A stretch of 33,927 bases of DNA. Origin: Patescibacteria group bacterium. GTDB lineage: Bacteria > Patescibacteriota > Patescibacteriia > UBA1558 > UBA10009. The notes beneath the pieces are model-generated. The model saw nothing but the letters and a program-made list of their open reading frames with translations. It was not told the DNA's origin and did no database searches. This document shows, piece after piece, positions 25,062 to 31,837 of this stretch (positions are counted from its first letter, which is position 1; the number at the start of each line of letters is the position of its first letter). The position numbers and the translations under genes were made by a program. The stretch covers positions 1 to 33,927 of the forward strand of contig DATDUR010000096.1 of assembly GCA_035290305.1 (NCBI GenBank), given 5' to 3'.

Positions 25062-25076
25062 TCGGGGGTCGTCTAA
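24801..25076 (+). CDS. GIY-YIG nuclease family protein (small, UPF0213-like)
   Basis: 91 aa with YYIYVL...LYIGCTSNLDKRLKYHNQG...YFEE, the GIY/YIG-Arg-Glu pattern. The last 5 codons and the TAA (25074-25076) are encoded by nt 1-15 of the tRNA-Gln gene. Confidence 0.82.
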   Translation: MKSDLYYIYVLLSLKDNNLYIGCTSNLDKRLKYHNQGRVKSTQNRRPFKLVYFEEYTDKYLAFKTERSYKTAKGKRILKSKIKNNTYSGVV

Positions 25077-25135
25077 TGGTAGGACACCAGGTTTTGGTCC
25101 TGGTAATAGGGGTTCGATTCCCTTCCCCCGAGCCA
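25062..25135 (+). tRNA. tRNA-Gln (anticodon UUG), CCA encoded
   Basis: Hand-folded cloverleaf. Acceptor stem TCGGGGG/CCCCCGA with the U1-A72 pair typical of bacterial tRNA-Gln. D loop AATGGTA. Anticodon stem CCAGG/CCTGG with loop TT-TTG-GT. T arm AGGGG-TTCGATT-CCCTT, discriminator G and CCA. Confidence 0.9.
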
Positions 25136-27426: not shown

Positions 27427-27498
27427 TGTTAGCTGATGTAGTTAAAAGTTTTTATCCCGACGTAAAGTCGGGACATTATTTAGGGCTATTTTTTATTT
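27427..27498. repeat. left 72-nt inverted repeat (IR-L) of the cassette
   Basis: Its reverse complement matches 30262-30333 at 68/72 positions by hand alignment. It contains the hairpin TCCCGAC-GTAAA-GTCGGGA. Confidence 0.88.
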
Positions 27499-27592: not shown

Positions 27593-28597
27593 ATGACAAA
27601 CATTCCTATTTTTGATAAAATAGCATTAAGCTATATAAAGCCATTTTTTATGAAAAATTATCTATTACGAATCAAAAAAATCAAGAAACAATTCGCTATT
27701 TCCAAAGAAGAGCGTTTTGTAGCCGCTCCCAACGGCACTAATTATAAAGTTTTCCTTTCAAATAATTATGTTATCCGTTTTCGAGACAACAACCCCAAAC
27801 TTTTATCAAGAGAGGCAAATTTTTTGAAACAACTTAATCATGCGCTAATACCAAAAGTTTTGTGGTGCGGAGAAATTGATCAACTATTTTTTATGGTTGA
27901 AAATCGACTTCCTGGGAAAACAATAAATTTAGTTTGGAAAAATCTCTCAGTAAGCAATAAAAAGAATATCATTGAACAAATTGTTGAGTTTTTGCAGTAT
28001 CAGAAAATTCAAACAAAAGATTATGTCTATTCAGTAAAGACGGGTAAAAAATATGAAAGATTTTTGGATTATCTTACAGATGGCTTAAAGCAAAAAGCTA
28101 CTAGTATTAAAAAATTTAAACAAACAAATAAAATAATGGGAGACTTATTATTAATTGTTAACGATCCAGAAGTTAGAAATTTGTTCACTAATAAAACAAA
28201 ATCTACTTTAGTCCACGGCGATCTTATTATTCATAATCTGCTTACAGATGGAAAAAATTTAACGGGAGTTCTTGATTGGGAACTGGCATTATGGGGCGAT
28301 CCTGACTATGACCTTTTTCGCCTCTTTTATTATCAAGGATGTGCGAAAGCCTACCAAGAACAGGGAGTCGATGAAACATTTGAATCTGATTATATGGATA
28401 GGTTAATCGCAACGATTTTGAAGTCTGACTTTATAAAAAATAAAAAATTATTCCAGAGAAAATATCAATTAGTGCGCGCTATTTTTTATCTCAATGCGCT
28501 TTATTGGGCAACAAGCTCAGATAGCCCGGAAAAAAATATCAATGAAATTATAGTACAATGGGATAAAAAAAGCGGGACCAAATACTTGCGTACTTAA
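27593..28597 (+). CDS. phosphotransferase enzyme family (APH/choline-kinase-like) protein
   Basis: 334 aa with the catalytic loop VHGDLIIHNLL and the Mg-binding segment GVLDWELALWGDPDYDL. The gene is very AT-rich. An alternative start is Met20 (27650). Confidence 0.85.
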   Translation: MTNIPIFDKIALSYIKPFFMKNYLLRIKKIKKQFAISKEERFVAAPNGTNYKVFLSNNYVIRFRDNNPKLLSREANFLKQLNHALIPKVLWCGEIDQLFFMVENRLPGKTINLVWKNLSVSNKKNIIEQIVEFLQYQKIQTKDYVYSVKTGKKYERFLDYLTDGLKQKATSIKKFKQTNKIMGDLLLIVNDPEVRNLFTNKTKSTLVHGDLIIHNLLTDGKNLTGVLDWELALWGDPDYDLFRLFYYQGCAKAYQEQGVDETFESDYMDRLIATILKSDFIKNKKLFQRKYQLVRAIFYLNALYWATSSDSPEKNINEIIVQWDKKSGTKYLRT

Positions 28598-28603: not shown

Positions 28604-28611
28604 AGGCCGCA

Positions 28612-28707
28612 TTATTTGCAGCCAGTTCGTTTACCCGGGAAAGATGCTCCCGACGGCAGGGGCATAACCCTGGCGATCTTGATCTTCTTGATCTTGATCT
28701 TCTTCAT
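28612..28707 (-). CDS. candidate RiPP precursor peptide, 31 aa (absent from the ORF track)
   Basis: Translation is MKKIKIKKIKIARVMPLPSGASFPGKRTGCK*. An AAAGGAGGTGA SD ends 7 nt (AGGAGG core 9 nt) upstream of the ATG. The ORF starts 16 nt after the rSAM stop on the same strand and is followed by a terminator. Confidence 0.6.
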   Translation of the reverse strand: MKKIKIKKIKIARVMPLPSGASFPGKRTGCK

Positions 28708-28723: not shown

Positions 28724-30178
28724 TCATAATGTACAGGTTTGGCAATTACCTACTGCCGCAGTTCCGTTTGACCGAAGATATTCTACGGCAAGCGCTTCTG
28801 TGACCCTGCGATAAAAATCGCACATGTCGTCAAAAAATTTTTGTTGACCCTCGACCGCTGAGCGAGAGACGACCTCTCTGGTAACATGACATTGTCCACC
28901 ACAGGGTCCTTCTATCTCGCAGCCGGAACAGTACGCATCTGTTCCAGGGAAACGGCTGGCAACTATTTGTACCAAATTACCCCTTTCCTCGAATATTTCA
29001 TCAAAACTGTCTATGTGACCGACTGTCGTGGTAGTGTGGCTACAGATTTTAATACTGCCATCCACATTGAATTCAAGGGTTTTGCCCTGAACGGCAGCAC
29101 AAAACGCGTGATCTCCAGACAAGAGGCTTTCTGATGTCAGATTACGGAATGGAGAATCCCACGTTCCAAAGAAGTTGATACCGTGTTCGTTGGCGTACTT
29201 TTTGAGTCGCATGAGTTTTGCAATTCGCTTCTCAACCGGAACGTGAACTAGACCAACGAGATTATAATCGAAGGCGATCGAAGTCATTTTTCTTTCAATC
29301 GCCAAATCAAGAACGTCTGTGTCGACGAGTTCGAAGTTGCCTCTTGTAACTGTGATGCTGAATCCGTCGAGGGGATAGCCAATCTCTACCAAGAGATCAA
29401 ATTTCTCAAGGATGCGAGCAAATGTTCCCTGTCCGCCCTTTGTTACACGGATGGCATCATTAGCTGTATGGGTGCCGTCAAGTGAGGTTGCAATACGGAC
29501 TTGATACCTCTTGAATATCTCGGCGATCTGTCTAGTCATGAGTACTAAGTTTGTATTAATGGCGAACTCAAACGAGAGATCGTCCATTTTGCTACAGTAT
29601 TCCAACACCCGCTCAATAACGGGCCAGTTGACCAGTGGTTCTGCGTTTCCGAAATGGATATTACCATGGGTTCTTCCTTACTCCCTCGTCAACGCAATGT
29701 ATTGGTCTACACATCGTTTTGCAGTTTTCCAAGTCATGTTAAGTTGCGGAGCCGTTTGTTGATATAAAGGCAACGCCTGGTCAGAGTTGGTTTTGGGCTG
29801 GAAGTGAATGCAGTGTGTGCATTTGAAGTTACACGAATCGCTGATTGCGAGGCCCATTCGATCAACCGTCCGTCGCTCTTGCACCTGGGCGAGTTGCTGT
29901 GTTTTTTTCTCTTGCAGGAATTTTTTCTCATCAAAGCCGGATTCGACAAGAAAAAAAATTTCCGCGAACTCTTGAATAGTACCTTTGGGGTCTTCGTCGC
30001 ACATTTTAGAAACTTCCTCCACAGTAGTTAATTGTCTGAAGAAATCTAAAAATTGAAGACCTTCATTATTGACAATCCTGGGATTGCCATACAGCGTGTG
30101 ATAAACCATTGCCATTTCTGATTTAGAATCAGAAATGATGCGGAGATTCGGGGATAACTGATATCTTTGTTTTTTCAC
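28724..30178 (-). pseudogene. radical SAM/SPASM peptide maturase with N-terminal RRE-like domain, interrupted by one in-frame TAA
   Basis: GTG start at 30178, 8 nt after an AAGGAGG SD. A roughly 90-aa PqqD-like N-domain precedes CNFKCTHC (CxxxCxxC). TAA at 29678-29680 is in the same frame as the downstream ORF (29608-28724), which continues IHFGNAEPLVNW and ends with the SPASM motif CSGCEIEGPCGGQC. The protein would be 483 aa if read through. Confidence 0.85.
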
Positions 30179-30219
30179 GTTTCTATCCTCCTTGCTTTTG
30201 ATGTTAAAGAACTGCTGAT

Positions 30220-30249
30220 ACCTTATCACTACCCCCCCCATTTTGTAAA
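30220..30249 (-). promoter_or_regulatory. candidate promoter of the rSAM operon with a G8 tract in the spacer
   Basis: The minus strand reads TTTACA (30249-30244), an 18-nt spacer containing GGGGGGGG (30239-30232), then TGA-TAAGGT (extended -10, 30228-30220). The match to consensus is weak. Confidence 0.25.
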
Positions 30250-30261
30250 GGGCTTTGTCAT

Positions 30262-30333
30262 AAATAAAAAATAGCCCCAAATAATGTCCCGACTTTACGT
30301 CGGGATAAAAACTTTTAATTACTTCAGCTAATA
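30262..30333. repeat. right 72-nt inverted repeat (IR-R) of the cassette
   Basis: It matches the reverse complement of 27427-27498 at 68/72 positions and contains the hairpin GTCCCGAC-TTTAC-GTCGGGAT. Confidence 0.88.
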
Positions 30334-30341
30334 TTGGATAT

Positions 30342-30381
30342 GAGAACATTAGAATATGAGAACATGAAAACATTAGAACAT
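30342..30381 (+). repeat. five contiguous 8-bp tandem units
   Basis: GAGAACAT TAGAATAT GAGAACAT GAAAACAT TAGAACAT, with consensus (G/T)A(G/A)AA(C/T)AT. The array lies directly outside IR-R. Confidence 0.8.
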
Positions 30382-30784: not shown

Positions 30785-31837
30785 ATGGACTCTTTTGTCA
30801 TCACTAAAATCTTCGCCTTAACGGCTTGTTCGTTTATCCTGGCCATGGCCCTAACGCCGCTTTTGACCCATTATCTCTACAAATACAAACTTGGCAAACA
30901 AATCAGGTTAAGCGAAAAATCGCCGATTTTTTCCAAACTTCATCATAAAAAGCAGGGCACGCCGACTATGGGCGGCGTTATCATCTGGTTGACGGTCTTG
31001 GTCGTGGCCCTGGTTTTTTTCTATCTGGCCAAGCTTTTCCCCGAAACTTTTTTTGCCCGGCTGAACTTTTTAACCAGGCCGGAAACTTTATTGCCGTTGG
31101 GAGTTTTCATCTGCTCGGCCGTGGTCGGGCTGATTGACGACCTCTTGGGAGTAAAAGGCATCGGCCCGAACGGCGGCGGTTTAAACATGAAACATCGTTT
31201 GTTGATTTACACGGCTATTGCCAGCGTCGGGGCTTTTTGGTTTTACTACAAACTGGACTGGGACGTGATGCACGTGCCGTTTCTGGGCAATTTTGAGATT
31301 GACTGGTGGTATATACCCATCTTCATCTTCATTATCGTGGCCAGTTCTTTTTCGGTCAACGAAACCGACGGGCTGGACGGCCTGGCCGGCGGCACCCTCT
31401 TAACCTGTTTTGCCGCGCTGGGCGCCTTCTCCTTTATTTTAGGGAAATATGACCTGGCTACTTTCTGCGGCGTGATTGCCGGGGCCCTGCTGGCTTTTTT
31501 GTGGTTCAACATCAACCCGGCCAGATTCTTTATGGGCGACACCGGCGCTATGTCTTTGGGCGTAACTCTGGGCATCGTGGCCATGCTCACCAATACGGCC
31601 CTGCTCCTGCCGATTATCGGCTTTGTGCTGGTGATGGAATCTCTGTCGGTTATTATCCAGCTTACCGTTAAAAAACTGGGCCACGGCAAAAAAGTCTTTT
31701 TATCCACCCCGATTCATCATCATTTTGAAGCCATCGGCTGGTCCGAACCCAAAATCGTCATGAGATTCTGGGTTATTTCCGGAGTCATGGCCGTGGCCGG
31801 ACTGATTATCTTTTTAATTGACAAAGGCTGGTATTAA
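30785..31837 (+). CDS. mraY: phospho-N-acetylmuramoyl-pentapeptide transferase
   Basis: 350 aa, polytopic, with KQGTPTMGG, NETDGLDGLA, MGDTGAMSLG and PIHHHFE. Confidence 0.96.
   Translation: MDSFVITKIFALTACSFILAMALTPLLTHYLYKYKLGKQIRLSEKSPIFSKLHHKKQGTPTMGGVIIWLTVLVVALVFFYLAKLFPETFFARLNFLTRPETLLPLGVFICSAVVGLIDDLLGVKGIGPNGGGLNMKHRLLIYTAIASVGAFWFYYKLDWDVMHVPFLGNFEIDWWYIPIFIFIIVASSFSVNETDGLDGLAGGTLLTCFAALGAFSFILGKYDLATFCGVIAGALLAFLWFNINPARFFMGDTGAMSLGVTLGIVAMLTNTALLLPIIGFVLVMESLSVIIQLTVKKLGHGKKVFLSTPIHHHFEAIGWSEPKIVMRFWVISGVMAVAGLIIFLIDKGWY

Follow-up and report, generated by a model that had tools for sequence, protein, structure and literature searches.

Organisation of the maturase cassette

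The DNA analysed here (referred to as the window) is a stretch of 33,927 nt, corresponding to positions 1 to 33,927 of contig DATDUR010000096.1 (assembly GCA_035290305.1) of a Patescibacteria group (CPR) bacterium, an ultra-small inhabitant of groundwater. On its minus strand, the window contains a peptide maturase gene of 484 codons, which extends from a GTG at 30178 to a TGA at 28724 and represents the single maturase copy in the genome. The GTG at 30178 was identified as the true start codon, as it is preceded by an AAGGAGG ribosome-binding site (RBS) and orthologues start at the same place. The sole lesion of the gene is an in-frame TAA at codon 167 (29678-29680). The minus-strand ORFs 29678-30373 and 28724-29608, which the initial annotation had placed in the same frame, were indeed shown to share one frame with this TAA (29680-29678) as their only separator, the sequence across it reading ...DQYIALTRE-TAA-GRTHGNIHFGNAEPLVNW.... 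Moreover, a tblastn comparison with the intact orthologue P0001 aligned residues 1-484 in a single frame with exactly one stop and zero frameshifts, which upholds the further claim that no other lesion is present.

The 5' part of the gene (29681-30178, minus strand) comprises the GTG with its RBS, an RRE-like N-terminal domain and the cluster motif CNFKCTHC (codons 116-123; 29833-29810), and is predicted to yield a truncated product of 166 aa. The 3' part (28724-29677, minus strand) contains 317 codons plus the TGA, and encompasses the GGE-like motif FGNAEPL (codons 176-182; 29653-29633), the remainder of the radical SAM barrel and the Cys-rich SPASM region; it is undecayed and 100% identical to the corresponding part of the intact allele P0124. 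The stop was thus correctly placed between the Fe-S and GGE-like motifs in the initial annotation, in which the codons following the stop had also been described as conserved in appearance: over the 23 codons that separate the stop from the next potential start codon (GTG at 29608), the sequence is identical to P0124 and fits the family consensus. No RBS-led in-frame start was found between the stop and the GGE-like motif. At the C-terminus (window positions 28727-28750), the protein carries a conserved tail, ...RSNGTAAVGNRQTCTL, which is common to most close orthologues. The NCBI record splits the gene into products of 223 and 311 aa, and a 287-aa C-terminal product is also recorded in JGI/IMG; the two ORFs should be annotated as one disrupted gene rather than as two genes.

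Downstream of the maturase gene, an intact 31-codon precursor-like gene (MKKIKIKKIKIARVMPLPSGASFPGKRTGCK; 28611-28706, minus strand) starts 16 nt after the maturase stop codon. Such a 31-codon ORF sits 15-40 nt downstream of the maturase in most loci that reach past the maturase gene, including loci at which the maturase is broken. The deduced precursor peptides follow the consensus MKKIxIKKIKIxKVxPLxSGxSFxGKRTGCK, with divergent peptides at two distant loci. The next gene (27650-28597, plus strand) is convergent and intact, and encodes an APH-family kinase of 315 aa when counted from the second ATG. A convergent APH-type kinase gene was observed at most loci with enough flanking sequence, and no stop or frameshift was identified in it at any locus covering it. 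The maturase, the 31-aa precursor and the APH-type kinase together constitute a three-gene accessory cassette.

A 70-nt repeat is located upstream of the kinase gene (27429-27498, plus strand), with its inverted partner in the maturase leader, upstream of the maturase gene (30262-30331, minus strand). The two copies, which are the only ones in the genome, are identical at 67 of 70 positions, contain a CCCGAC-GTAAA-GTCGGG hairpin followed by a T-rich tail, and are placed in the same orientation relative to the kinase and maturase genes, respectively. A promoter or leader common to both genes is one possible role of the repeat, and delimitation of the cassette ends is another. Among 80 relatives of the same order, the maturase was present in four, two of these being fragments, and its closest homologues were found in differently named CPR groups.

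Assignment of the maturase to the radical SAM superfamily is based on its CX3CX2C motif and on a PF04055 (Radical_SAM) match above the gathering threshold (48.1 bits versus a cut-off of 29.5), which, with the stop read as X, covers residues 112-270 and so spans the stop. In an alignment of 26 orthologues, the cysteines C116, C120 and C123 were invariant, as were C360, C379, C417, C420, C426, C430 and C453. The Cys-rich C-terminal motif, the alignment to the SPASM region of PDB entry 8VPO and the adjacent 31-codon ORF identify the enzyme as a SPASM peptide maturase. A protein search returned 232 relatives at identities of up to 85%, and the majority of the best 120 have lengths of 460-500 aa; all named relatives in this search derive from Patescibacteria/CPR metagenome bins. 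Within NCBIfam, radical SAM/SPASM peptide maturases were matched below threshold only, and no curated equivalog cut-off was reached. The best of these was PapB (NF047865; E-value 7.7e-26), and membership of this ranthipeptide maturase family was rejected, as the score of 91.1 bits compares with a cut-off of 340. With scores far below every curated cut-off, the maturase is, as judged from profile comparison, a member of no curated family.

The closest solved structure is that of TigE (PDB 8VPO; profile E-value 1.4e-56 over residues 3-464), followed by that of CteB (5WGG). In cyclopropyl synthases, as described in PMC10878394, the tyrosine of a GYW motif ligates auxiliary cluster I and is needed for activity. 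The aligned motif of the present family is GTW (G338, T339 and W340, all invariant; about 29157-29165 of the window), and identity as a cyclopropyl synthase (TigE/TvgB) was consequently rejected. The presence of GTW in place of GYW suggests that auxiliary-cluster ligation, or the chemistry performed, may be different.

Codon 167 in orthologues and in sister assemblies

As the initial annotation had proposed, orthologous loci were compared at the interrupted codon. Across 34 loci, codon 167 is CAA in 18 and CAG in three, the remainder being other sense codons, and all close lineages carry CAA or CAG (Gln). As these close orthologues agree, the TAA is deduced to have arisen from CAA by a C>T transition, P0124 having Q at this position. 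Eight nucleotides upstream of the stop (29688, minus strand), the window carries a second derived SNP, ATG>ACG (Met164Thr), at a codon that is ATG in 29 of the 34 loci; this SNP was paired with the TAA in every contig examined. By this comparison, the window haplotype is distinguished by the derived transitions Met164Thr and Gln167stop, which are separated by 8 nt. A templated origin of the linked pair was rejected, as the derived 15-mer has no second copy in the genome.

Pairwise dN/dS values, with those of pairs involving the window included, are roughly 0.06-0.27 and mostly 0.1-0.15; these estimates are rough, with dS being saturated for distant pairs. Such values indicate that the maturase was under purifying selection until very recently, including on the branch leading to the window.

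The protein cluster that holds the fragments encoded by the window has seven members, whose contigs were compared base by base with the window. Two of these carry ACG/TAA at 29688/29680: ENA contig k141_511924 of ERZ27254852 (L030), which matches the window at 100% identity over 4125 nt apart from a 379-nt deletion, and a Logan contig of SRR3989339 (L031), which is 100% identical over 1471 nt and starts exactly at 29848. The other five, which derive from sister groundwater samples, carry ATG/CAA and are ~99.9% identical to the window, with about one difference per kb. Three of these five encode the enzyme without interruption, namely L032 (ENA ERZ27254750; six differences from the window in 6783 nt) and L033 (SAMN03842446), both specifying P0124, and L034 (SAMN03202995), which specifies P0125 and has a leader shortened by about 39 nt. 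The remaining two are L035 (SRR2177950), which carries the 379-nt deletion, and L001 (SAMN03202999), which has two additional nucleotides in an A-run; this run lies where four SNPs, most of them synonymous, are clustered. Scans of metagenome and genome contig collections for exact copies of either allele gave no match, although records of this genome or of its nearest neighbours may be missing from these collections. On the evidence of the seven contigs, the population is nearly clonal and the TAA is an SNP specific to one strain within it. Its reproduction by different assembly pipelines argues against an assembler or consensus artefact; the three TAA-bearing assemblies possibly draw on the same or overlapping read sets, and their agreement excludes an artefact of the assembler but not one specific to the sample.

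Additional knock-outs within and beyond the population

The 379-nt deletion removes positions 29848-30226 (minus strand), and with them the RBS, the start codon and codons 1-110 of the maturase. The junction, at which ...ATGGGGGGGGTAGTG is joined to CAATCAGCG..., is identical in L030 (positions 1-130), which has the TAA background, and in L035 (positions 1470-1560), which has the CAA background. That L031 starts exactly at 29848 is expected if deleted and undeleted forms coexist in SRR3989339. The two additional nucleotides of L001 (at about 29215-29219) may reflect strain mixing rather than a real frameshift, and are counted here as a possible frameshift only.

The maturase leader is an indel hot spot. 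It contains a G8 tract at 30232-30239 (within 30206-30242 of the window), and L034 (at 1850-1920) lacks about 39 nt around this tract and retains both the RBS and the gene. Clustered, mostly synonymous SNP patches were also observed in sister contigs that are otherwise identical: in L001 at ~2120-2165 (window 29180-29219), in L034 at 149-629 (window 31351-31831) and in L035 (window 28480-28528). Such patches point to a more divergent strain that either recombined with these or was assembled together with them.

Among 20 species representatives, the maturase is intact in 18 and broken in two (L012 and L020), neither at codon 167. In L012, codon 7 is altered from CAG to TAG. In the genome bin L020, an additional A is present inside the TGG of codon 150, and the same +1 A was found in 13 Hainich groundwater contigs (L002-L005:3950-3965; L020:3440-3455), some with a coverage of more than 1000 according to the contig name. 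In this Hainich lineage, the remainder of the maturase as well as the precursor and kinase genes are all intact. A programmed +1 frameshift was rejected for this allele on the reasoning that ACA-TAG-G offers no good tRNA re-pairing, and the allele was treated as a pseudogene. The patchy presence of the maturase (four of 80 relatives), together with the breaks in two of 20 species representatives, indicates that the gene is dispensable.

Further breaks were found outside the species set, among examples that had been picked for shortness and are biased for this reason. Among short Logan/ENA contigs, the reading frame is shifted near codons 85-105 in L027 and near codon 113 in L029, and 5' truncations were observed in L036 and L037, with homology starting at codon 100 and codon 77, respectively. 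In both truncated loci (L036:150-490 and L037:1-67), unrelated sequence takes the place of the first 76-100 maturase codons; that of L036 is very GC-rich and may represent an inserted element. A suspected break in L028 was dismissed as a contig edge. The idea that the breaks share a conserved position between the Fe-S and GGE motifs, derived from matches of 326-337 aa starting with 'MTWETAK', was likewise rejected, as the breaks differ in kind and place.

The variety of these lesions raises the question of whether the maturase is repeatedly and selectively knocked out, with the precursor and kinase genes being kept. In favour of this reading are, within one population, the nonsense allele, the 379-nt deletion on both SNP backgrounds and the possible frameshift, and, in other lineages, the fixed +1 frameshift, the TAG at codon 7 and the 5' truncations. 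An excess of maturase breaks over kinase breaks is not significant, as the counts in the unbiased species set (two of 20 versus none of about 15) are too few. Selective knock-out is considered improbable. If true, it could reflect a maintained polymorphism, for example one in which non-producers exploit producers of the modified peptide or in which strains are spared the burden of an oxygen-sensitive Fe-S enzyme, or it could point to a function of the peptide and kinase that does not need the maturase. The occurrence of many different knock-outs of one gene, both within a population and across lineages, is nevertheless worth keeping as a side point.

Origin of the stop codon and comparison with known systems

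The TAA is best explained as a genuine, very young nonsense allele (CAA>TAA, Gln167stop) that segregates in the population, rather than as an assembly error or a case of recoding, and this reading is assigned a probability of about 80%. Two of the options put forward in the initial annotation, a fresh nonsense mutation and population heterogeneity, are thereby combined: the ancestral codon is CAA, TAA was recovered in two further assemblies, and CAA with an intact gene was recovered in 99.9%-identical sister contigs. The locus displays the attributes of a nascent pseudogene, i.e. one stop in a 484-codon frame, orthologues under selection, and intact versions (P0124 and P0125) in contigs that are 99.9% identical.

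Under this reading, translation would end after 166 residues. The resulting fragment would retain the domain presumed to recognise the peptide (RRE-like) and the CX3CX2C loop, and would be devoid of the GGE-like SAM-binding strand, the remaining barrel and the SPASM clusters, leaving the enzyme presumably inactive. The TAA strain would then be unable to modify the 31-aa peptide, which would stay unmodified. Near-identical strains in the sister samples keep the CAA and an intact gene, other members of the population carry different knock-outs, and the TAA allele would represent an early stage in the loss of a dispensable accessory gene.

The alternative that survives best, although it is unlikely, is that the window is a chimera of haplotypes. 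In this scenario, TAA and ACG exist only on the haplotype with the 379-nt deletion, where they arose secondarily and neutrally after the gene had been inactivated, and the window is a stitched assembler path in which a full-length/CAA strain was joined to a deleted/TAA strain. Indeed, the full-length 5' part in combination with TAA (P0121) is known from the window's own contig alone, the other complete TAA contig having the deletion. The deletion with TAA in L030 and with CAA in L035 can be ordered as full-length/CAA, deleted/CAA and deleted/TAA without any recombination, and the end of L031 coincides exactly with the deletion junction, which would be expected from the presence of both forms in SRR3989339. 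Furthermore, the distance of 160 nt between the junction and the SNPs exceeds the k-mer sizes given in the contig names (k141 for L030 and k127 for L035). However, a chimera requires that, at two successive bubbles, the assembler followed first the minority and then the majority path, and recombination among co-occurring strains would yield the same four combinations. No marker separates the haplotypes, given that on the 3' side L030 and L031, and on the 5' side L035 and L001, match the window at 100% identity.

A sequencing or consensus error, in which case the organism would truly carry CAA and an intact gene, is very improbable. The window is a single base away from an intact allele and the consensus of a metagenome-assembled genome can contain errors, but the same two linked substitutions, ACG and TAA, occur in three assemblies generated by different pipelines (NCBI MAG, k141 ENA and Logan). 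The TAA assemblies are, moreover, 100% identical over 1.5-4.1 kb, and two changes 8 nt apart are atypical of such errors. This option of the initial annotation is accordingly disfavoured.

Genome-wide recoding of TAA had already been regarded as unsupported in the initial annotation, and it was rejected here on the basis that TAA is in use as a terminator and release factors are kept. Of 610 frames with 150 codons or more, 420 (69%) terminate in TAA, making it the main terminator of the genome, and the two UAA-reading release factors were both identified, RF2 as a complete gene scoring above the cut-off and RF1 as a C-terminal piece at a contig end. No tRNA with the anticodon UUA was detected among the 23 tRNAs found in the genome, which is 84% complete. 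The other in-frame pairs with a single TAA between them that were inspected, by eye alone, proved to be adjacent genes or antisense shadow frames.

A programmed read-through or recoding site at codon 167 was rejected as well, since the stop is not conserved and neither a suppressor tRNA nor an RNA element was detected. TAA at codon 167 was seen only in L030 and L031, which represent the window's own strain, all other lineages examined having a sense codon; conserved in no orthologue, the stop also differs in position and kind from the breaks of other lineages. No Rfam match was obtained around the stop at E<=1, and the RNA fold of this region is unremarkable (z-score -1.26), with no stable structure. 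In addition, the haplotype is 2 nt from an intact one, too recent a separation for a recoding signal to have evolved. Functional read-through of this individual stop, for example by a near-cognate tRNA-Gln, or assembly of the two fragments into an active split enzyme is thus the least probable explanation: near-cognate reading of UAA by tRNA-Gln(UUG) (gene at 25062-25135) would restore the wild-type Gln, and the 3' part of the maturase is undecayed, but nothing suggests such reading above background, the undecayed state follows from the youth of an allele 2 nt from an intact one, and the 3' fragment is without an RBS-led start ahead of the GGE-like motif.

With the TAA interpreted as a young nonsense allele, its strain is to be scored as a non-producer of the modified peptide, and the CAA allele of the sister contigs is the one to use for expression of the maturase/peptide/kinase system. 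The case would illustrate strain-level gene loss in CPR bacteria at a stage where intact and broken alleles still coexist.

The maturase/peptide/kinase system is undescribed, and comparison with characterised systems reveals both shared and distinct features. Like TigE and other radical SAM cyclopropyl synthases, the maturase has an RRE-like N-terminal domain, a CX3CX2C motif, a GGE-type motif and a SPASM region; unlike in TigE systems, the precursor is Lys-rich, ends in GKRTGCK and has no TIGSVS-type repeats, and the maturase carries GTW rather than GYW. With the ranthipeptide and sactipeptide maturases PapB and CteB, the system has in common a precursor with a single Cys near the C-terminus. 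As regards decoding, some CPR bacteria use code 25, and TAG or TGA is recoded in some phages. The present locus resembles programmed read-through and alternative codes in having an in-frame stop within a conserved gene of a CPR bacterium, but the stop here is TAA, the main terminator, and is strain-specific, with no recoding element or suppressor found. The closest parallel is that of an ordinary nonsense polymorphism or nascent pseudogene, in which one transition creates a stop and the intact allele persists in near-identical strains, with the remainder of the gene undecayed, a patchy distribution, and repeated loss or breakage in relatives. The locus departs from this pattern in that several maturase knock-outs (nonsense, 379-nt deletion and possible frameshift) occur in one ~99.9%-identical population, and in that these lesions spare the adjacent genes for the precursor and the kinase. 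A fresh nonsense allele of an accessory gene is biologically ordinary.
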